Sequence record: PZ445435.1 | Direction: 5' to 3' (one strand) | DNA from: a phage | Length of the DNA: 64,000 nucleotides | In this document: positions 12,970 through 44,766 of the stretch, in pieces | How the letters are laid out: each line of letters opens with the position of its first letter | Numbering within the stretch: position 1 is the stretch's first letter | The notes under the pieces: generated by a model | What the model saw: the letters and a program-made list of their open reading frames with translations, nothing else | Databases searched by the model: none | What the model was told of the DNA's origin: nothing | Program-made: the position numbers and the translations under genes

Positions 12970-13239
12970 TTATTTAAAACGAATAGTTGAATCCTTAAAG
13001 AACAGCCCAGAACATACTGTTCCTTCTACTTTCTGCCCAGTAGGTCCAACAGCACGAAATCCAGTATGTTGGAAATCATTTTCAGAGCAACCGAACCAGT
13101 TATATCCAGTGATTTCAATATTCGTAAAACCACTTGATGATAAAATTTTAGTTGCATTATCAGCATCAGTGCATCCTACTAAAGATACTGCTAATACTAA
13201 TGCTGCGATAGAACGATTAACATATTTCATAATTTTCAC
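12970..13239 (-). CDS. putative lipoprotein
   Basis: 89 aa; signal peptide plus lipobox MKIMKYVNRSIAALVLAVSLVGC. Confidence 0.6.
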   Translation of the reverse strand: MKIMKYVNRSIAALVLAVSLVGCTDADNATKILSSSGFTNIEITGYNWFGCSENDFQHTGFRAVGPTGQKVEGTVCSGLFFKDSTIRFK

Positions 13240-13607
13240 TTAAATTTAATGGCTTGAAGGAGACTAATAATTCTTAAACGGCTTCTTTCATCTTTAACTG
13301 TAAAAGAAAGAGGGTCGCCAGATTTCATAGTAATAGTGCATTCAAAATCAAAATCTTCAGGAACTTCTTCGAAGAAGTCAAATTCTTCATCATAAATTAG
13401 AACATTACTCTGAAAACTGTGAAGAATTTTTCCATCATTTCCAGATGCTGTACTAATCATTGTAACATTATTACCTTTCATATCTTCAACGATAAATTCG
13501 CTTGTAGATATTACATTACTAATAGAACCATTCCTATAAATAGCAGAAAATAGATATTTCTTTTCTTCGCCTTCGCGAATACGATACTTCTTACCGATTT
13601 TAAACAT
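13236..13607 (-). CDS. hypothetical protein
   Basis: 123-aa ORF, 4-nt overlap with downstream gene. Confidence 0.55.
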   Translation of the reverse strand: MFKIGKKYRIREGEEKKYLFSAIYRNGSISNVISTSEFIVEDMKGNNVTMISTASGNDGKILHSFQSNVLIYDEEFDFFEEVPEDFDFECTITMKSGDPLSFTVKDERSRLRIISLLQAIKFK

Positions 13608-16383: not shown

Positions 16384-17067
16384 TTATCGTTTTGTTGGAA
16401 GAGATAGAGGATCGCACTCTTCCTCTGACGGAGCATCTTCAAGACCCATAGCATATCGCAAAGCATACTTCATCATCAGGATGTCTTTCGCACAATCATG
16501 AATAGAATCATGCGCAACGAATCCATCTAAAGTTCCCTTTGGAAGAGGACATGTAGTCATATCACGAACAAGCAGAAGTGCTTCAATTCTGGTACGAATA
16601 TCACGCTGATTCCAGAATTTACAAGGTTCTAACTTAAACGTATCAAGCTCATTCTCAGAAACGCCATTAAGACGTTGAATATCGCGAATGAGATCGACTA
16701 AAATTGGAAAATCAAACGACATTCCACGGCACCAACCTTGAGATTTCCAAGGATCGATATTATGTGCATTGATGTAATCGTTGAATTTTGCAATACCATC
16801 AATGGTGCTTACATCTTCATCGGATGGTGCAATATTTTTTCGAGCTTCAGGAGACTGATTTTTCCACCATTCGATAGTGCTTTTAGTAAAAAGACGATGT
16901 CCTTTTTGGCTTTTTAAATCAAATTTGATTTTAATGCCACGTGAAACTAATTCATCAAATGTTTCAACAACTTCTGGGTTAGGGTCAAAGGCAATAACAG
17001 CCAAATCAATAACCGCTGCTTTTTCACCGCTTCCCATTGTTTCAAAATCTATAATAAAATCAAACAT
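16384..17067 (-). CDS. dexA: exonuclease A (DnaQ-like 3'-5' exonuclease)
   Basis: 227 aa, N-terminal FDFIIDFETMG exonuclease motif; size matches T4 DexA. Confidence 0.85.
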   Translation of the reverse strand: MFDFIIDFETMGSGEKAAVIDLAVIAFDPNPEVVETFDELVSRGIKIKFDLKSQKGHRLFTKSTIEWWKNQSPEARKNIAPSDEDVSTIDGIAKFNDYINAHNIDPWKSQGWCRGMSFDFPILVDLIRDIQRLNGVSENELDTFKLEPCKFWNQRDIRTRIEALLLVRDMTTCPLPKGTLDGFVAHDSIHDCAKDILMMKYALRYAMGLEDAPSEEECDPLSLPTKR

Positions 17068-17309
17068 TAAATTTTCCTCGCTAAATCGCGAATTTGACCT
17101 ACAGTATAATCTTGGATATAAACTTTATTAATGGGCTCATCAATAAATTTTGCCATAGATTCAATATCTTTTTGTATCTCTTCAAGACTGTATACTATCT
17201 TTAAAGCTTTTTCGCGAATAGTAACATTATCAGGTCCTGGATTTTCCTCAATGACAGCTTTGACATTTGTCATAAGAGATTTAAACTGATGCAAACTTAA
17301 TTCAATCAT
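17067..17309 (-). CDS. hypothetical protein (paralog pair, member 1)
   Basis: 80 aa; similar layout to adjacent 86-aa ORF. Confidence 0.5.
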   Translation of the reverse strand: MIELSLHQFKSLMTNVKAVIEENPGPDNVTIREKALKIVYSLEEIQKDIESMAKFIDEPINKVYIQDYTVGQIRDLARKI

Positions 17310-17562
17310 TAATAATCGCCTTATAAAGATAGCTAATTTCGCCTAAAACATAATCATTAATTGTAACAGTTTTCACTTCACCGCAAAAGAATTCTAACGC
17401 AATTAAATCTCGTTCAATTTCTTCTAATTGAAGCATCAACTTACTAGATTCAATTTTTACAGTTTCACGATTTTTACCATGAGCAATTTCATAAATTTCG
17501 CTAACTTTATCCTGAAGAAGATAAAACTGATCTTTAGTTATTTCCACGAATAGCTTCCTCAA
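17302..17562 (-). CDS. hypothetical protein (paralog pair, member 2)
   Basis: 86 aa. Confidence 0.5.
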   Translation of the reverse strand: MRKLFVEITKDQFYLLQDKVSEIYEIAHGKNRETVKIESSKLMLQLEEIERDLIALEFFCGEVKTVTINDYVLGEISYLYKAIIND

Positions 17563-17568
17563 ATTTAA

Positions 17569-18888
17569 TCATACGTAAAACACATCATAACGACCACGAG
17601 TGACACCAACATAAAGAAGCTGCTGAGCTAATTCAGCATCTGCATAATGAATACAAGGCGTATAGATGAAAGCACGGTCTACAGACATACCCTGCGCTTT
17701 ATGGAATGTTGATGCAGGAAGTGCTTTCACTTTACTAAACTGTGATTTAGCATCCCAAAAATCACTCCATGGAGCTTTTCCGCCTTTATTCCAATTTTTA
17801 TAAGTTTCTGCGGTTTTACCTAAAAATAGGTTAAACTTATATAGCTCTTCATCGGATGAAATTATTTTAATCTTTTCACGATAATATTCATCATCGCCAT
17901 AAGTTTCTACTGTTAAATCCCAATGACGAATTAGATATTCTCCAGGAACACCACGAGCTTTAACAAAGGTTGATGTATACTCTGCTTCTATAATACGAAC
18001 TAATTGTCCGTTATTAAAAATAATTTCTGACACAGGCTTTCCATCAATTTTATATGTTTTAATTAATGGTTCCTGCATTACAATAATTTCACCGACAATA
18101 AAATCTTTATCAGTTTCAAAAATCTTTTTACGAATAATGCTATTTAACTTGTCAACAGATTTATTCGTAAATGCCATTACGCGATTTTCAAACAAATCAT
18201 CTAGTGATTTGACGATTGAAAAATAATTTACCATAAAATCGCGTAAAGCGGTATCACCGGTAAATCCACGTACTCCATGACCGTCAACAACTTTATCATA
18301 AATCCACTTACCGTTACGAACGTCAGTAGCTACATCAATAATAGGAGCATTACTGCGTTTAACTTCAGTGAGTTCACACTGATAAAAATCTTTGTGTGTA
18401 AAGAATGGACTGATATAAGCAGTATTTTCTCCTGGGTCAACAGGTCTAATTTGCTTATTATCACCTATTCCAATTATAGTACACCAAGGTGGAATGGTTG
18501 AAAGCAGAATTTTAAATAGCTTTCTATCATACATTGACACTTCGTCGCAGATTAATACCCTGCATTTAGCTAAATCTGGTACTTCTTTTTGTTCAAAAAG
18601 AACGTTTTCTTCATATGTTACTGGGTTAATTTTGAGAATACTGTGAATAGTACTTGCTTCTTTCCCAGATAGTTTTGAAAGAATCTTTTTAGCTGCATGA
18701 GTAGGAGCTGCTAAAATAATACCAGTTTCACCTGTAGATATTAGGGCTTCAATAATGAACTTAGTAAGAGTAGTCTTACCAGTACCAGCAGGTCCATTAA
18801 TAGTTACATGGTGTTTCTTTTCTTTGATAGCCCTCATAACGATGTTAAAGGCATTTTTCTGGCCTTCGGTCAAATCATCAAATGTCAT
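17569..18888 (-). CDS. dda: Dda DNA helicase (SF1B)
   Basis: 439 aa, Walker A GPAGTGKT, Walker B LICDEVSM; size matches T4 Dda. Confidence 0.9.
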   Translation of the reverse strand: MTFDDLTEGQKNAFNIVMRAIKEKKHHVTINGPAGTGKTTLTKFIIEALISTGETGIILAAPTHAAKKILSKLSGKEASTIHSILKINPVTYEENVLFEQKEVPDLAKCRVLICDEVSMYDRKLFKILLSTIPPWCTIIGIGDNKQIRPVDPGENTAYISPFFTHKDFYQCELTEVKRSNAPIIDVATDVRNGKWIYDKVVDGHGVRGFTGDTALRDFMVNYFSIVKSLDDLFENRVMAFTNKSVDKLNSIIRKKIFETDKDFIVGEIIVMQEPLIKTYKIDGKPVSEIIFNNGQLVRIIEAEYTSTFVKARGVPGEYLIRHWDLTVETYGDDEYYREKIKIISSDEELYKFNLFLGKTAETYKNWNKGGKAPWSDFWDAKSQFSKVKALPASTFHKAQGMSVDRAFIYTPCIHYADAELAQQLLYVGVTRGRYDVFYV

Positions 18889-23769: not shown

Positions 23770-23979
23770 TTAAATTACATGATTATTTATAATAAATTCT
23801 CGCGGAACGTTAAAATACCCGATTTTAGTTAATATAACAACATCGCCGTTAATAATTACCGGAGAATAATCTTCTGGAGCATTAAATTTCCAATGGGCTC
23901 TAATATTATATCCATCAGAACCAAATGCTCGAGTAGCCGGTCTCCCGGCTTTTTGCCACGCGTAGAAATCAAATTTCAT
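23770..23979 (-). CDS. hypothetical protein
   Basis: 69-aa ORF; its 3' end overlaps the soc late promoter. Confidence 0.45.
   Translation of the reverse strand: MKFDFYAWQKAGRPATRAFGSDGYNIRAHWKFNAPEDYSPVIINGDVVILTKIGYFNVPREFIINNHVI
23785..23792 (-). promoter_or_regulatory. late promoter (TATAAATA) for soc
   Basis: Minus strand TATAAATA about 30 nt upstream of soc RBS AAGGAG. Confidence 0.6.
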
Positions 23980-24170
23980 TTTGAATGCTCTATAATTAAT
24001 TTTAAAGCTTCTTCACTGACAAAAATTTCGTCAGGACCTTCTATAACTTCAACCATACGAAGTTGATTAGTTAAGAGCTCACATACGAGCTCCTTGTTAT
24101 AATCTTTAAATAGCTGGTCAATACGTTTCTTATGGGCTTTCTTAAGCTGACGCTTATTTAAACGAGCCAT
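23976..24170 (-). CDS. hypothetical protein
   Basis: 64-aa ORF coupled to gene 56 stop. Confidence 0.45.
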   Translation of the reverse strand: MARLNKRQLKKAHKKRIDQLFKDYNKELVCELLTNQLRMVEVIEGPDEIFVSEEALKLIIEHSK

Positions 24171-24688
24171 TAATAACCTCGGTCTTGACGAGCGAAGTTT
24201 TCAGCATTTTTCAGATAATAAAGTTTAAATATTTCTTCAGCTGACATTCCAAGAGCAATGAATTTATTCATGAAAAAGTGAAATTGATCAATCAGTTCAA
24301 ATTTAATTTCAAGTTGATCTTCAGGAGATAAGTCTTGAATTTTCTTGGATTGCATTTCAGAATAACGTTTCTTCCAAGGTTTCCATACGGCAGAAGCTTC
24401 TTTTTCACCATTACTCATACCACCAAGAGAAGTATATAGCTCGCGAGTTTCATCTGCGATATAATCGTCTTGGTTTCGCAACCAAGCAAGAACTTCTCCT
24501 GCAGTTTCAAGTGAATCGGGATGACGATTTGTTTCTGGTTTATCATTAGCCAAACGAATCTGTAAATGCCGCTGCATATCAAGCATAACCTGCAATGGGT
24601 CAATACTGTGCATAATATACTCAGCATATGCACGATTTGCTTTATCAACACCTTCGATCAAATGAGCACATTCATTAAAGTGAGCCAT
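24170..24688 (-). CDS. 56: dCTP pyrophosphatase gp56
   Basis: Start refined to MAHFNECAHLIEGVDKA (172 aa); MazG-like; track ORF has a 31-codon extension. Confidence 0.8.
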   Translation of the reverse strand: MAHFNECAHLIEGVDKANRAYAEYIMHSIDPLQVMLDMQRHLQIRLANDKPETNRHPDSLETAGEVLAWLRNQDDYIADETRELYTSLGGMSNGEKEASAVWKPWKKRYSEMQSKKIQDLSPEDQLEIKFELIDQFHFFMNKFIALGMSAEEIFKLYYLKNAENFARQDRGY

Positions 24689-24722
24689 TATTTTTCCTTT
24701 CAATTCATGGGTTAGTAGATTA

Positions 24723-24747
24723 ATTATACAATAAATATATAAAGCAA
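24723..24747 (-). promoter_or_regulatory. MotA-dependent middle promoter for gene 56
   Basis: Minus strand TTGCTTTA-13nt-TATAAT. Confidence 0.5.
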
Positions 24748-24759
24748 TAAGGAGGACAT

Positions 24760-24960
24760 ATGGTACAAAAATTAATGGCACTTGTTAATGCCATAAAAGG
24801 TAATAAGAAACGTATAGCTTTTACTATTTCTGCTATGGTAGGAATTTTACTCTGGAACTTTATTTTATCACCTGTTGCAATTGCACATGGTATTAATATT
24901 CCAGTAGTTACTCTTGATACATTCGTAGATTTAGCATTTGCTTTAGTTGGGTTAATTTAA
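24760..24960 (+). CDS. small membrane protein on the plus strand (66 aa), at the T4 dam position
   Basis: Strong RBS AAGGAGG 5 nt before ATG; hydrophobic segments AFTISAMVGILLWNFILSPVAIA and VDLAFALVGLI; convergent with gene 61. Confidence 0.5.
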   Translation: MVQKLMALVNAIKGNKKRIAFTISAMVGILLWNFILSPVAIAHGINIPVVTLDTFVDLAFALVGLI

Positions 24961-25985
24961 ATCTTAGCATATTTAGATAGCCGCATTTTAGCCATCAACC
25001 CCTGGGCAATATTATTTTTCATATATTCCATAATTTGTTCAGGGGTTGCACCTTCCTTTCTAATCATATCATTAACATCTTTTGATTTCCAGGGAGATTT
25101 ATCCCAAAACATAACCCTTTCTCCTGCATCAACTAATTTAGTCATTCGTTTGATAGTGTCAGGGTGACGAGGTTCATTATCTAAAACCCACACTCGTCTA
25201 TCTTTAAATGGAACAACTTCTAGGTCTAATTGACCACCCGTAATAGCTATACCATTTTCAATAAAAAGTGAATCTATAGGTCCTTCTAGAACATATACAT
25301 CACCATCTTTAACTCGTTCGACTCCATATATTTTTGTTGCCTCAGGATAAGCTTTGATGGTGATATATTTTTGAGGAGCATCTTTCTTTAATGCACGTCC
25401 TTGAAAAGACTCAGCTTTTCCATTAGCATTATAAATTGGAATAACAAGACGAGGCTCAGAAATTTCCTTTTTGTATGTTCCCGGTGCTATGCTATTAACT
25501 AATTTAGGCCATTCGGTTGTAAACCAAAGATATTTCCATTTATCCTTTGGAATACAACGAGCTTTTACATATTTTATAATTGGATGGTCTTCCGCCAGTT
25601 TATCTAATCTAACGCATGACGGAAGAGATTTAATTATTTTCTTCTCAGGTTGTTTAGGAAGTTCTTTAGGTTTTTCTACTGGACGACTTTTACCTTTTTC
25701 TTTTCTTATTTCAAAGATATACTCACGATATAAATCAGGTTCAAACTCCTTTAAATATATTCCGATTGGTGCATGATAGTTACAGTTATAACAATGAATA
25801 TTTCCTTCATTATTATCACCATAATACCATCCACGAGCTTTATTCTGGTCGGTTTTTGAATCTCCACAAACAGGGCATCTAAACCGTAATTTAAAAGTTG
25901 AACTATTATTTACTTGTGTGAATTTAGGTAAATGAGCTAATGCACGGTATGCAAACTCATTATCAATCCAAGGTATTGATGACAT
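24957..25985 (-). CDS. 61: DNA primase gp61
   Basis: 342 aa, zinc ribbon CPVCGDS...CYNC; size matches T4 gp61. Confidence 0.9.
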   Translation of the reverse strand: MSSIPWIDNEFAYRALAHLPKFTQVNNSSTFKLRFRCPVCGDSKTDQNKARGWYYGDNNEGNIHCYNCNYHAPIGIYLKEFEPDLYREYIFEIRKEKGKSRPVEKPKELPKQPEKKIIKSLPSCVRLDKLAEDHPIIKYVKARCIPKDKWKYLWFTTEWPKLVNSIAPGTYKKEISEPRLVIPIYNANGKAESFQGRALKKDAPQKYITIKAYPEATKIYGVERVKDGDVYVLEGPIDSLFIENGIAITGGQLDLEVVPFKDRRVWVLDNEPRHPDTIKRMTKLVDAGERVMFWDKSPWKSKDVNDMIRKEGATPEQIMEYMKNNIAQGLMAKMRLSKYAKI

Positions 25986-29442: not shown

Positions 29443-29799
29443 TTAAAAGAATTTAAATTTTTTCTTTGACCTTTTATTAAATGCATCTTGCAGTTGCATT
29501 GTAATACATTTTTCTACATGAGGAGCTAACTCAGCTTTTCTTTCTTGGTCAAGAACAGCAAAGTCCATTACGACTTTTCCATCAACCCAATCTAATTTTG
29601 TCACATACACAATGTGTGTAGAACCATCTTCTAGTTTAATGACAATCTCCTGGATAACATTTTCCATGGCAGATTTAATTATCTTAAGAGATTCATTAAA
29701 AAGACGTTCTTTTCTTTCTTCTTCCCCCTCCGAAGAGGGGGATTCATCGATAATTTCTAAATCTAAATCATCTTTACTCATTAAATTCTTCCATATCAC
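29443..29799 (-). CDS. 40: gp40-position protein
   Basis: 118-aa ORF between uvsX and 41; contains an internal GC hairpin. Confidence 0.55.
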   Translation of the reverse strand: MIWKNLMSKDDLDLEIIDESPSSEGEEERKERLFNESLKIIKSAMENVIQEIVIKLEDGSTHIVYVTKLDWVDGKVVMDFAVLDQERKAELAPHVEKCITMQLQDAFNKRSKKKFKFF

Positions 29800-33720: not shown

Positions 33721-33808
33721 AGTTTTGTGAAAAATTTTTTAGGGAATTCTAAAGGTCCAGAATCATCTGTTTTTCATAAGTATAGATTTATATTACTTGT
33801 ATGAAAAA

Positions 33809-33824
33809 GGGACCCGGAGGTCCC
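33809..33824 (-). terminator. hairpin downstream of gene 43
   Basis: gggacc-cgga-ggtccc; minus-strand UCCG loop. Confidence 0.5.
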
Positions 33825-33837
33825 TAGATTTATTCTA

Positions 33838-38807: not shown

Positions 38808-39494
38808 TTAAAAATCATGGGTAGAATCAGCTTCAAGAGCTACTACATAATTCGCGTGTTCACCTTCAAATTTAGCAGCACCTTGTTTACCTTTTGCCCA
38901 GAGCAGAAGTTTATAATTTCCTGGTTGCATTTTCATATTTGCCATATTGATAATGAAATTAAATGTATTTTCACCATCATAATCACCAAGAGTCAAAGAA
39001 TATTTAACACGGGTCAGAGCAGAATCTTCTACTTTATTAAAACCGTTAATTACGATTTTACCTTCTTTTACCGTGATAGCAATTGTATCAATCTGCAGAC
39101 CACGAGATACACGTAACAGCTGTTGAAGGTCTTCAGCTTTAATTTCAGTAACAACAGATGCTACCGGGAATGGAATTGGTTTATTAGGAGCAACTACTGT
39201 ACTCGGATCGGCTGCTGGCCAAAAAATTGTTGAACGAGCATCAGCAATTTTAATATTTCCATCTTCTGACTGGGAAATTTCTGCATCATCATTAACTAGA
39301 GACAGAATACCAAGAAAACCGTTTAAATCGTAAATTGCTACATCAAAATCAATAACGTCAGAAATATTTGCTTCCGCATAAGTTGTACCATTAACTGCGC
39401 GAGTCATAATAAATTGACCGGATTTAAGCATAATACCGGAGTTAATAGTAGCGAAATTTTTAAGCAGAGCAGTAGTATCTTTAGACAGTTTCAT
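38808..39494 (-). CDS. 45: sliding clamp gp45
   Basis: 228 aa; size and synteny. Confidence 0.9.
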   Translation of the reverse strand: MKLSKDTTALLKNFATINSGIMLKSGQFIMTRAVNGTTYAEANISDVIDFDVAIYDLNGFLGILSLVNDDAEISQSEDGNIKIADARSTIFWPAADPSTVVAPNKPIPFPVASVVTEIKAEDLQQLLRVSRGLQIDTIAITVKEGKIVINGFNKVEDSALTRVKYSLTLGDYDGENTFNFIINMANMKMQPGNYKLLLWAKGKQGAAKFEGEHANYVVALEADSTHDF

Positions 39495-39523
39495 GTAATT
39501 TCCTTCAATTCAAATGAGATTTA

Positions 39524-39549
39524 ATTTTATAACTAATTTAATAAAGCAA
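39524..39549 (-). promoter_or_regulatory. MotA-dependent middle promoter for gene 45
   Basis: Minus strand TTGCTTTA-12nt-TAAAAT. Confidence 0.45.
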
Positions 39550-39939
39550 TTAACGATTAAAATCAGCCGCAATTGTTTCCGCAACAATTTGAGCAGCAAC
39601 AATTAGACGTTCATCTGCATTACCACAATAATCATCTTCAAGGCGTTCACCACATGAAGTCATAATAAATTTAGCACCGGCGTTTAGGGATTCTGTAGTA
39701 TGTTTGCGCATTAGTTCAATCCATTTATTACTTACTTCACGATCGATAGCTTCATAATACGCATGACGAGCAGGTGCAGATTTAATTTTGTTCTGAATAA
39801 CTTCCATTGCGTTATCAGAAAGAGACAAAACCCATGCGCGACGAATTTTATTTTGGTTTTGCGGATTTGAGTCAGAACGCACGTGTTTTGGCTGAATATC
39901 TTTTACATCAACGTTATAATTCACAGTAATTTTAGTCAT
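39550..39939 (-). CDS. rpbA: RNA polymerase binding protein RpbA (by size and position)
   Basis: 129-aa ORF immediately upstream of gene 45. Confidence 0.6.
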
Positions 39940-39948
39940 AATACACCT

Positions 39949-40137
39949 TTAGTCATAATAATCAGTAACAGTCCAAGCTTCATTTCTATTGGACATTATT
40001 TTTGTATATTCTGCTTTAAATGCATTCCTAAGCATAGATTCAGTAACTATATGCTCTTCATTAGAAAAATTATTTCTCAGAATATATCGTTTTATTTCAG
40101 GAATAGTTAATAGATGCTGTCCAGTTGAATATTCCAT
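39949..40137 (-). CDS. hypothetical protein
   Basis: 62-aa ORF. Confidence 0.45.
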   Translation of the reverse strand: MEYSTGQHLLTIPEIKRYILRNNFSNEEHIVTESMLRNAFKAEYTKIMSNRNEAWTVTDYYD

Positions 40138-40192
40138 GTTTTTCCTCCATAGAGATTATACTCTAATAAATTAAAGCATAATCTCTTATAAA

Positions 40193-41875
40193 TTAAACCA
40201 TTACAGTAAATCGACCAACTTTCTTCATTTGAAGATGCTGACCGTATGCTTGTGGGTCATGGTCTCTATGCGAAATAACAAAAACATTAGTATTTTTTAA
40301 ACTATCTAAAATAGTTGAAATAGCTTTTACACCTTCAACGTCGGTCGCTGAATCAAAAACTTCATCAAGAATTAGTGTGTTTATTTTAACACCTGAAACT
40401 TTTTCAGCAATATCACGCCAAGTAAATAAAAGAGCAATATCAATTCGTGCTTTTTCACCTTGACTGAATGAAGCATAACTAAAATCTTCACGACCACGGG
40501 ATTTAATTGTCTCATTAAATTCTTCATCTAATGTAAACACATAATCCGCTTCCATTATTTTAAGATAATGGTTAATCTGCTTATTAAATAATGGAATGTA
40601 CTTTTTAATAATAGCACCTTTAATACCAGAATCTTTGAGCATATCAGTCAAAATTCCTCGGTGGTATTTTTCCATTACTAAATTAGTTTTTGTCTTAACA
40701 ATTTTATCAAGTTCTTCTTGAAGCAGTGCTATTTCATCAGCATGGTCAATAAACTCAGAAGATGCTTTTTCTATAGCTGCTTTAACTTTTTTAGCTTTAT
40801 CTACCGTCGTGATTAGAGATTGCTTTTTATTGCGAATATCATTTGCCAACGACTGCTGAGTTTTAATATTATCTCGGTATTCATCAACAAGAACTTTTAA
40901 ATTATCACGATGTGTTGAAAGCTGTTCAAACGAATGCGTACATTCAGAAACTTTATCTTTAATTTTAGAAACAACTTTATCACCGGAACTTAATTGTGAC
41001 AAACAGGTTGGACATAATCCACCTTCGTGATACATATTAATGACTTTATTATACGAGTCAATTTTTGATTTAATTAAAACTGCTTCTTGACCGATTTTAT
41101 TAAATGCATCAGTCGGGTCTTCATCTAAAACAATATTAACTAATCTTTCATTAGCTTCTTCTATTTCCGATTTTAGCGTTCTAGCTTCTTTTGCCAAATC
41201 ATCATACATATTTTGCAGACGAGTAAGGTTGTCACCAGTTAATTTTTTCTGGCGTTCAACGTTATCATTATATATTTTAATTTGTTGGATAATACTATCT
41301 TTTTTAACATCAAGCACTTGGTTTTGTGAATTTAATTCGCGTATTAGTGCTTTGTTAAGCTTATCCATTTCAGCTAATGTTCCTACCTCAAGCAGGTCTT
41401 CCACAAGCTTTCTTCGCGCAGGGGTCGACAAACCCATGAAAGGGGTATACCCTGCTGTACCAAGAACAACAATCTGCTTGAAACTGGCATATGACATTCC
41501 GATAAGCTGTTCAAATTCTGCTTGGAAATCTTTACTGCTGGCAGATTCATTAAGACGTGTACCGTTAACGGTGATTTCGAAAACGTTTGGTTTTTGTCCT
41601 CTTTTGATATAGTACTTTTTCTCATCATATTCCATCCACAGTTCAACTAAAAGTTCTTTCTTATTTGTGCTGTTTATTAATTGACCTTTCTTTACATCAC
41701 GGAATGGCTTGCCAAAAAGCCCAAATGTGATGGCTTCTAACATAGTAGACTTACCACCGCCATTTCGTCCAGTAATAAGAGTTTTTTGAACCTTATCTAA
41801 TTGAATGTCAATAGGATTTCCACCTACTGACATTATATTTTGATACCTAACTCGGTTTAGTTTAAAATTCTTCAC
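40193..41875 (-). CDS. 46: recombination endonuclease subunit gp46 (Rad50/SbcC-like)
   Basis: 560 aa, Walker A GRNGGGKST, central coiled coil, C-terminal ABC signature/D-loop. Confidence 0.9.
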   Translation of the reverse strand: MKNFKLNRVRYQNIMSVGGNPIDIQLDKVQKTLITGRNGGGKSTMLEAITFGLFGKPFRDVKKGQLINSTNKKELLVELWMEYDEKKYYIKRGQKPNVFEITVNGTRLNESASSKDFQAEFEQLIGMSYASFKQIVVLGTAGYTPFMGLSTPARRKLVEDLLEVGTLAEMDKLNKALIRELNSQNQVLDVKKDSIIQQIKIYNDNVERQKKLTGDNLTRLQNMYDDLAKEARTLKSEIEEANERLVNIVLDEDPTDAFNKIGQEAVLIKSKIDSYNKVINMYHEGGLCPTCLSQLSSGDKVVSKIKDKVSECTHSFEQLSTHRDNLKVLVDEYRDNIKTQQSLANDIRNKKQSLITTVDKAKKVKAAIEKASSEFIDHADEIALLQEELDKIVKTKTNLVMEKYHRGILTDMLKDSGIKGAIIKKYIPLFNKQINHYLKIMEADYVFTLDEEFNETIKSRGREDFSYASFSQGEKARIDIALLFTWRDIAEKVSGVKINTLILDEVFDSATDVEGVKAISTILDSLKNTNVFVISHRDHDPQAYGQHLQMKKVGRFTVMV

Positions 41876-43514: not shown

Positions 43515-44717
43515 TTATTTTGTAATAATGTCAAACTGCTCTTTAAAGCAGAAGCTTGAATCTTGATGTTGATACAAAAATTCATAAGCTTTTTCGCGTT
43601 CACGGTCATAAAGAGCTCGGTCAGATGACAGTTCTTTAATACGTTCAAATGTTGATTCCATGTCATTTTCATCAAACCAAACGATACCGCTATCATGAGA
43701 AATTAACGGAGTATTATCAACACGGAATTTTAAATTTTCGCCAGTAGATTTCCAAAATACCGGAATTGTTCCACATGCACCAAGCTCGAGATGAGTGTAT
43801 TCTAAAGAACGTTGTAGATATTTTTTATCTAATTTACTCAGCTGATAACCAAATCCGGATTTACTCATGCGTTCAAGCATTTCGCTATTTACATAACGGT
43901 CGAGAATTTGCGTTGGCAAATTAGGAGCAATTTTAATTTGGTCTACTTGATGAAGACGATAATACTCGTATGGAATTCCTTTTTCTTTAATAGGAATGAA
44001 CGCTGGAGAACGTTCCAGACCTTCCATAATAGTACTCAATCCTGCAGGTTTAAGATGTTTTTCATGAAAATCAAACATCTGATAAAAGCCTTTCCATGTA
44101 GTAGTACGACCAATCCAACGGTTGATATTCATGTTAATTTCAGAAACATCTTTCCAGTAGGTTGATCGAACCTTCGCAATATCCATAGGAGGCTGAAAGT
44201 TATATACGGTCGGTGCTTCTTCAATATCATCAAACAGAGAAACTGTTTCTGGATACCATTCTTTCATTAAAACTTTATTAAAATCGCCATTATCAGAATG
44301 ACTAAAAATAACATCAGCTCGACGAACAGTTTCTTCTAATCCCAAATTTCGGCGCAAAGAAAGAGAAGAATGGTCATGCTGATAAACTACAACACGAACA
44401 GAAGGTTTAATGTTATCAATAATTTTTTTATAGTTATTAATAGTGTCTTCTTCAACCGAAGTAGCAGGAACTGAATTGATAATTAGAATATCACAATCAT
44501 TTACCAGCTTAAGTGTTTTATCATATTCTTTTGCCAATAAAACCGGAATTGAAAATGATTTATAATCATGCGCGCAATTACGAGTAAATGATTTATCTTT
44601 AGCATAAACCAAAGTTACTTCATGACCATTTTTAATAAACCAATCACGTTGCTCGAGTGAGAATTTTGTTACACCACAACCTTCAAGACCTCGAGCCATA
44701 AAAATACATACTTTCAT
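43515..44717 (-). CDS. agt: DNA alpha-glucosyltransferase
   Basis: 400 aa, MKVCIFMARGLEGCGVTKFSLEQRDWF...; matches T4 alpha-gt from memory. Confidence 0.85.
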   Translation of the reverse strand: MKVCIFMARGLEGCGVTKFSLEQRDWFIKNGHEVTLVYAKDKSFTRNCAHDYKSFSIPVLLAKEYDKTLKLVNDCDILIINSVPATSVEEDTINNYKKIIDNIKPSVRVVVYQHDHSSLSLRRNLGLEETVRRADVIFSHSDNGDFNKVLMKEWYPETVSLFDDIEEAPTVYNFQPPMDIAKVRSTYWKDVSEINMNINRWIGRTTTWKGFYQMFDFHEKHLKPAGLSTIMEGLERSPAFIPIKEKGIPYEYYRLHQVDQIKIAPNLPTQILDRYVNSEMLERMSKSGFGYQLSKLDKKYLQRSLEYTHLELGACGTIPVFWKSTGENLKFRVDNTPLISHDSGIVWFDENDMESTFERIKELSSDRALYDREREKAYEFLYQHQDSSFCFKEQFDIITK

Positions 44718-44741
44718 TTAATATCCTCTTTGTTTTGGTTT

Positions 44742-44766
44742 ATTTTACCAAAAATTTATAAAGCAA
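44742..44766 (-). promoter_or_regulatory. MotA-dependent middle promoter for alpha-gt
   Basis: Minus strand TTGCTTTA-11nt-TAAAAT. Confidence 0.4.

Follow-up and report, generated by a model that had tools for sequence, protein, structure and literature searches.

A conserved small membrane-protein gene, dam.1, between genes 56 and 61 of a T-even phage: a putative late gene with remote similarity to three-transmembrane holins

What occupies the short interval between genes 56 and 61 in a T-even phage that has no dam methyltransferase gene at this place, and what might its product do? We addressed this question in a 64,000-nucleotide stretch of phage DNA (sequence record PZ445435.1), which is referred to here as the window and in which a 66-codon open reading frame (ORF) of the dam.1 type lies on the plus strand, tail to tail with the primase gene 61. 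A preliminary description of the locus, made from the sequence alone, had proposed that dam has been replaced by this ORF; T4 and T2, however, carry both. The ORF is very probably a real and conserved protein gene, the presence of which is unrelated to the loss of dam. The reading that we prefer, at a probability of roughly 55%, is that dam.1 would be a late gene specifying a holin-derived microprotein of the inner membrane which acts as an accessory envelope or lysis-timing factor. This reading is built on sequence comparison and structure prediction, for which the following parts of the gene (window coordinates) are needed.

24730..24737, plus strand: AATAAATA, a putative T4-type late (gp55) promoter with an ATAAATA core and A at -13, proposed from conservation of the motif
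24748..24755, plus strand: Shine-Dalgarno sequence TAAGGAGG, with a 4-nt spacer (ACAT) before the ATG, read from the sequence
24760..24960, plus strand: dam.1-type ORF of 66 amino acids (bas45_0141; phrog_2024; equivalent to RB69ORF029w), supported by the sequence, the PHROG match, alignments and the ratio of nonsynonymous to synonymous changes (dN/dS)
24805..24885, plus strand: predicted transmembrane helix, codons 16-42, from AlphaFold2, hydropathy and charge
24853..24918, plus strand: family motif W-N-F-x3-P-x5-G-x3-P-x-V-x-L-D, codons 32-53, from alignments; common to the C-terminal part of PF11351 holins
24913..24948, plus strand: short hydrophobic, acidic C-terminal helix, codons 52-63, predicted to be periplasmic, from AlphaFold2 and charge

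Bases 24100-25600 of the window are 100% identical to Escherichia phage PaulHMueller (Bas45, MZ501098.1, Tequatrovirus), position 1 of the window corresponding to position 65689 of that record. The GenBank entry already lists the 66-codon ORF, as bas45_0141, hypothetical protein. It is the sole plus-strand coding sequence annotated in the window, all other listed coding sequences being on the minus strand, which bears out the initial impression that it is the only plus-strand gene here. A near-perfect ribosome-binding site had also been noted and is indeed present as TAAGGAGG, although its spacer, given as 5 nt, is actually 4 nt. GGAG or GGAGG was found at every homologous locus, and the Shine-Dalgarno sequence and the ATG are kept in every lineage.

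Conservation of the ORF is extensive. The product matches phrog_2024 with an E-value of 1.4e-31, residues 2-66 aligning with positions 1-65 of the 65-position profile, and the same profile is matched by 20 out of 20 diverse members of the family. A tblastn search located the ORF in 692 phage records at 44-100% identity (query coverage of at least 80% in 686 of them), almost always beside and convergent with primase. Identity is greater than 90% in Tequatrovirus and 44-57% in Mosigvirus and Gaprivervirus. Across the T4-like loci examined the synteny is kept: the ORF lies on the plus strand, between gene 56 (or dam) and gene 61, and converges with the primase gene. In nearly all relatives it is annotated as a hypothetical protein, in T6 as dam.1 and in RB69 as RB69ORF029w, the latter having been listed as a novel ORF with a predicted transmembrane segment at 21-41 (Nolan et al. 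2006, PMC1524935). A conserved, annotated counterpart in all relatives was what the preliminary description had named as refuting its proposal, and by this measure the proposal is refuted. Within genera, dN/dS is 0.07-0.22 in Tequatrovirus and Mosigvirus and, on few changes, 0.34-0.55 in Gaprivervirus; the variable columns number 45, 21 and 56 at the first, second and third codon positions, respectively, second positions being the least variable. As judged from the aligned sequences, both patterns are those of purifying selection.

An exhaustive HMMER profile search of 1.84 billion representative proteins recovered only 17 clusters, all of 33-70 residues, and a profile search of a 5.8-billion-protein collection recovered a second subtype, which we designate type B. 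This is the only copy found at the locus in Klebsiella phage Potts1, and Gaprivervirus possesses tandem paralogues, type A followed by type B, ahead of the primase gene (L008 1495-1692 and 1701-1901; L014, L015 and L018 likewise). In UPEC01 and Klebsiella phage SAKp28, type B bears the label "DNA packaging ATPase"; neither label is credible for a 66-residue membrane protein. The other database names are "hypothetical" or "uncharacterized," save for one UniProt "Holin" label, which also appears in BFVD.

The immediate surroundings of the ORF in the window comprise the following features.

24170..24688, minus strand: gene 56 (dCTPase), the left neighbour, its product 70% identical to T4 gp56
24957..25985, minus strand: gene 61 (DNA primase), the convergent right neighbour, its product 99% identical to T4 gp61
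24957..24960, no strand assigned: tail-to-tail stop-codon overlap (TTAA, 4 nt) of the ORF and primase gene 61, read from the sequence
24765..24794, minus strand: terminator-like hairpin (ATGGCATTAACAAGTGCCAT) with a T-run, within ORF codons 2-12 and downstream of gene 61, seen at Tequatrovirus loci only

The gene 56-gene 61 interval measures 268 bp, close to the 270 bp first estimated. As had been said, it contains no methyltransferase (tblastn with T4 Dam as the query gave no match in the interval or in the window), and the 66-residue ORF is convergent with gene 61. Nor was a T4-type Dam found by tblastn anywhere in the 170-kb PaulHMueller genome, which speaks against relocation. In T4 (NC_000866) gene 56 is followed by dam (16846-17625), confirming the location between genes 56 and 61 given in the preliminary description, then by a 310-bp unannotated stretch, and then by gene 61. 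That stretch encodes on the plus strand (17738-17938) an ORF of identical length, 66 residues, with two substitutions, the same Shine-Dalgarno sequence and the same 4-nt overlap with gene 61. It is unannotated in the T4 reference and in the second T4 strain record checked (KJ477684). The exact T4 protein variant was seen only in raw Logan assemblies and not among the NCBI and UniProt sources of the collection, from which it follows that T4 has no NCBI or UniProt protein record for it.

Comparison of the 56-61 interval in T2, T4, T6 and RB69, which the preliminary description had recommended, reveals the ORF in all four phages, with dam there in T2 and T4. The order in T2 is 56-dam-T2_31-ORF-61, and the ORF is noted in that record as "similar to RB69ORF029w; RB32030w." T6 (MH550421; L041 2142-3957) has the order 56-ORF-61 without dam between genes 56 and 61; its record names the ORF dam.1 and annotates a 61-residue version starting at the second ATG. 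RB69 reads 56-RB69ORF029w-61, likewise without dam. Among 22 loci compared by local tblastn, the ORF is found with or without dam, and coexists with it in T4, T2, L012 and L013. Approximately 502 records of the phage collection contain a Tequatrovirus-type ORF (at least 90% identity), versus 182 with a T4-type Dam (at least 90% identity). About two thirds of the Tequatrovirus records have the order 56-ORF-61 and no dam. By these gene orders and record counts, dam is an accessory element added on the left side of an ORF-61 block that is itself constant, and the dam-less arrangement found in the window is the commoner T-even state, which leaves no replacement of one gene by another to account for.

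The window does possess a mosaic junction at this point, gp61 and the ORF product being 99% and 97% identical to their T4 counterparts and gp56 only 70%. Further to the left, ORFs soc.1 and soc.2 of the T2/T6 type are situated at 23770-24170, where T4 has segF. The 4-nt overlap between the ORF and gene 61 is also found in Mosigvirus, Klebsiella phage Potts1 and locus L028, as judged from start and end coordinates. Certain phages have a further gene between the ORF and primase, namely a homing endonuclease gene in Escherichia phage DK-13 (L006 1872-2621) and a 124-residue ORF in L021 (4204-4578), and in these the usual overlap is therefore broken. The minus-strand hairpin is confined to Tequatrovirus and missing from the other genera, and hence is not a feature of the family. 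A "terminator" feature is annotated beneath the ORF match in two Yersinia phage records. Elsewhere in the window, putative homing endonuclease genes (by annotation) are located in the replication-gene cluster at 39491-40378 and 44141-44764, after gene 45 and after gene 47, respectively.

The case for late expression comes from the sequence AATAAATA, the end of which is 22 nt from the ATG in the window. All 11 of the T4-like loci examined carry an N-ATAAATA motif at a distance of 15-33 nt ahead of the ATG, although its flanks have diverged. These loci represent Tequatrovirus phages that have dam and others that lack it, Mosigvirus (RB69 included), Gaprivervirus, Klebsiella phage Potts1, in which the motif is a perfect TATAAATA, and three unclassified contigs. 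The T at -13 of late promoters is poorly conserved, A or T being common (Nolan et al. 2006, PMC1524935). AATAAATA itself is also found upstream of T4 late-region genes 15 and inh. More generally, 15 of the 29 ATAAATA copies in the T4 late region are no more than 60 nt upstream of a start on the same strand, at 12-35 nt from the ATG. Both the spacing and the variation at -13 seen for dam.1 thus agree with genuine T4 late genes.

ATAAATA is rare in the window, with 7 copies on both strands compared to 39.4±6.5 expected from dinucleotide shuffles. This roughly five-fold depletion suggests selection against stray late promoters in the early region. Four copies are on the plus strand, and only the dam.1 copy is followed by a ribosome-binding site and an ORF; the remaining three, at 13536, 15588 and 22458, were considered as promoters of hidden genes and rejected, there being no ORF of at least 20 residues downstream. 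On the minus strand there are three copies, one of them the TATAAATA at 23784-23791 that precedes the late gene soc. The plus-strand copy at 13536 is part of a perfect TATAAATA (13535-13542) inside the minus-strand gene bas45_0114 (13236-13607); this could be an antisense late promoter. A sigma-70-like promoter was also sought for the ORF on the plus strand and was discarded, none being found. Going by the motif and its conservation, we consider dam.1 to be probably a late gene.

Downstream of the ORF, the plus strand offers no convincing terminator; the first terminator-like site, a weak one, is at 29520-29540 and the next at 33808-33825. In consequence a transcript from this promoter, if it is used, would run antisense into gene 61. 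Temporal separation from early/middle transcription of the primase gene would avoid a collision.

The AlphaFold2 model, calculated from a 22-sequence alignment (mean predicted local distance difference test score of 79), has an amphipathic helix at residues 2-12 and further helices at 16-42 and 52-63. A membrane protein had been foreseen, and the model agrees; the two hydrophobic helices first envisaged do not both qualify as full spans, one being a long transmembrane helix and the other a short C-terminal helix. Net charge is +5 at the N-terminus and -2 over the last 24 residues. As there is no Lys or Arg among residues 19-66, this part would be released by trypsin as one hydrophobic peptide, and untargeted mass spectrometry is unlikely to detect the protein. 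The basic sequence KGNKKR (codons 13-18) stands ahead of the transmembrane helix, on account of which the predicted topology is N-in. Together the model, the charges and the segment predicted for RB69ORF029w indicate a bitopic inner-membrane microprotein with N-in, C-out orientation. Pfam, NCBIfam and PDB sequence searches with the window protein returned nothing significant, and Foldseek against BFVD recovered only its own orthologue and noise.

The alignment of the family defines, after the basic N-terminus, the pattern W-N-[FYL]-x3-P-x5-G-x3-P-x-[VI]-x-[LMI]-[DE], and through this segment it resembles a group of holins. The preliminary description had suggested comparing the peptide with small phage membrane proteins; a link to a holin-family profile did emerge, and nothing was obtained for the Imm or Sp families. 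Three of the 20 family members give weak matches to PF11351 ("holin of 3 TMs," the TMs being transmembrane segments), the best with an E-value of 0.03, and two of the 20 give weak matches to phrog_3427 ("holin"), the best with an E-value of 5e-4. In P0115 and P0120, the two members shown individually, the conserved Trp falls at the same position of the PF11351 profile. For comparison we assembled six genuine PF11351 holins from phage genomes, four of which adjoin a peptidase, muramidase or GH108 gene. The four scanned against Pfam match PF11351 at 1e-20 to 1e-25, and the five scanned against the PHROGs match phrog_3427 at 1e-31 to 1e-45. Alignment of the dam.1 family with the six holins by hhalign resulted in a probability of 94.2% (E-value 1.1e-7, score 43.2), placing family columns 18-67 on holin columns 72-128 of 148, with WNF-x3-P over [WY]-[NQHE]-[FY]-x3-P. 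The controls scored about 11 (reversed), a mean of 10.4 and a maximum of 17.6 (200 column shuffles), and 12.4±3.5 with a maximum of 28.5 (200 block shuffles in which the hydrophobic segment was held in place). The T4-type sequences alone align in the same register with a score of 31.6. On these alignments we lean towards homology between the family and the C-terminal membrane part of PF11351 holins.

The genome context outside the T-even phages was surveyed as well. In further T4-like contigs the gene is still beside primase. In three non-T4 contigs (L024 3260-4210, L027 4272-5159 and L026 2777-5213) the homologue forms the distal end of a tail-gene cluster on the late strand, and in L024 and L027 it comes after an endonuclease VII-like gene. 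All three encode upstream of it a transmembrane-plus-coiled-coil protein of 81-94 residues, which makes this a recurring module. The idea of a "split holin," with these neighbours as the missing N-terminal half, was rejected, the hhalign probability being 0.1. A classical holin-endolysin pair was not found among these non-T4 contexts. A distant 59-residue member lies on a short metagenomic contig (L025 129-1383), directly upstream of a 352-residue RelA/SpoT-domain protein.

How else might the locus be explained? Replacement of dam by a new plus-strand membrane-protein gene can be set aside with near certainty: dam does lie between 56 and 61 in T4 and is not there in the window's phage, but the ORF accompanies dam in the four loci named above and elsewhere does without it, and the dam-less order is the commoner one. 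It is also very improbable that we are dealing with a chance reading frame, conserved through signals on the minus strand such as the gene 61 terminator or the promoters of 56 or dam. Such signals do exist, for the terminator-like hairpin lies inside the ORF, in the 1984 T4 record a putative promoter of dam, P(E) 17.40, is placed immediately ahead of the start of the ORF, and an RB69 middle promoter for gene 56 is predicted in the 56-ORF spacer. The hairpin, however, is limited to Tequatrovirus, for which reason we dropped it as a true conserved element, and a chance frame would not be expected to remain intact in 686 of 692 records, to vary least at second codon positions, to keep its Shine-Dalgarno sequence and ATG in all lineages, or to have protein-level homologues extending to other types of phage.

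Granted a gene, its main product might nevertheless be a regulatory RNA, the late antisense transcript into gene 61 silencing early/middle replication-gene mRNA and the peptide being secondary. The 4-nt tail-to-tail overlap with gene 61 in several genera and the lack of a convincing plus-strand terminator behind the ORF would fit this idea. It is made quite improbable by an amino-acid motif kept at 20-50% identity with dN/dS below 1, by homologues in unrelated contexts with no primase nearby, by the genes inserted between the ORF and 61 in DK-13 and L021, and by the tandem paralogue kept in Gaprivervirus. If the protein is what matters, it could be an envelope protein of the superinfection-exclusion or immunity type, similar to T4 Imm and Sp or to cor/llp, which alters the inner membrane or periplasm to block the DNA of secondary phages. 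Here too there are attractions: the protein is small and membrane-bound, its genome region is shared with sp and imm, and the non-T4 homologues are at the distal end of tail operons in temperate-looking contigs, a frequent site of accessory genes. Exclusion genes are associated with the distal position in tail operons, and cor/llp are found beside tail genes. We still hold this to be unlikely, because the PHROG scans give phrog_2024 and weak holin hits and nothing for the Imm or Sp families, the specific profile similarity points to a holin family, and the promoter motif kept at dam.1 belongs to the late class while imm and sp are early genes.

We return, then, to the reading of dam.1 as a late, holin-derived membrane microprotein, which may be set out as follows. 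RNA polymerase directed by gp55 would start late at the N-ATAAATA motif, which stands approximately 22 nt ahead of the ATG and on the strand of most late genes, and the short leader with its perfect Shine-Dalgarno sequence would allow efficient translation. The 66-residue product would enter the inner membrane and cross it once by its transmembrane helix, leaving the basic N-terminus on the cytoplasmic side and the short acidic helix on the periplasmic side. Its transmembrane and C-terminal segment would share an ancestor with the C-terminal membrane segment of the PF11351/phrog_3427 proteins and, given that ancestry, it would most likely self-associate in the membrane, acting in this way as an accessory envelope or lysis-timing factor and not as the main holin, which is T. 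A lysis-related function in particular is a tentative proposal, somewhat less likely than not. That dam.1 is an overlooked part of T-even lysis control we consider rather unlikely; it would then be a minimal, late, oligomerising single-transmembrane derivative of a 3-transmembrane holin, tuning the timing or all-or-none triggering of T, including lysis inhibition, or depolarising the membrane late.

Several observations weigh against this preferred reading. At -13 most lineages have A, G or C where the consensus has T, and a late promoter upstream of RB69ORF029w was not predicted (Nolan et al. 2006, PMC1524935). A literature search turned up no paper on the dam.1 gene. The window protein has no Pfam hit at an E-value of 1 or less, and the family members, at 13.6-15.3 bits (best 15.3), do not reach the PF11351 gathering threshold of 24.8. 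The hhalign probability is just 74% when T4-type sequences alone are used, and similarity between transmembrane segments can be convergent. The family is without the N-terminal approximately 70 residues of the holins, their invariant GWRPxxGW and their basic C-terminal tail, and the dam.1 ORF is not beside an endolysin gene, its neighbours encoding dCTPase and primase and endolysin e lying about 50 kb away. With holin parts missing, the Pfam threshold not reached and no lysis cassette, the family is not a strict member of PF11351. The canonical set of holin T, endolysin e, rI, rIII and spanins is, moreover, already encoded. Because T4 defective in t does not lyse, the dam.1 protein cannot be a sufficient holin.

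The existence of the gene is already on record, as a hypothetical protein here and in hundreds of relatives. Three points are new: the T4 reference omits the gene, the late-promoter signal is conserved, and a specific remote similarity connects the family with 3-transmembrane holins. As the T4 reference is without dam.1, proteomic, transcriptomic and knock-down screens based on T4 are blind to it. Late expression and holin descent, if true, would mean that the T4 late programme includes an additional small membrane factor; if dam.1 were in addition a part of lysis control, the best-studied phage would still be short of one lysis or envelope player, absent from its annotation.

Among known systems, holin T and antiholin RI of T4 act in lysis from the inner membrane, and both are encoded by the window's phage. 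They differ from the dam.1 protein in that no similarity between them was detected, the PHROG scans giving phrog_2024 and weak holin hits, and in that T has 218 residues with a large periplasmic domain as opposed to 66 residues of which approximately 24 are periplasmic. T4 Imm and Sp are small envelope proteins from the same early-gene region; unlike dam.1 they are products of early, minus-strand genes, and they have no family match to the dam.1 protein. RB69ORF029w, T6 dam.1, the T2 counterpart and phrog_2024 represent the same gene, with 49-100% protein identity and the same position, strand and convergence with primase, and nothing material differs. The archetype of PF11351 (GTA_holin_3TM) is the putative holin of the Rhodobacter capsulatus gene transfer agent (PMC3423380). 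This family shares with the dam.1 protein a transmembrane segment of the form [WY]-N-[FY]-x3-P, followed by G ... L-P-x-[VI] ... G-L, and late-gene settings are found for both; the T-even protein, by contrast, has only about half as many residues and occurs in phages that use T as their holin.

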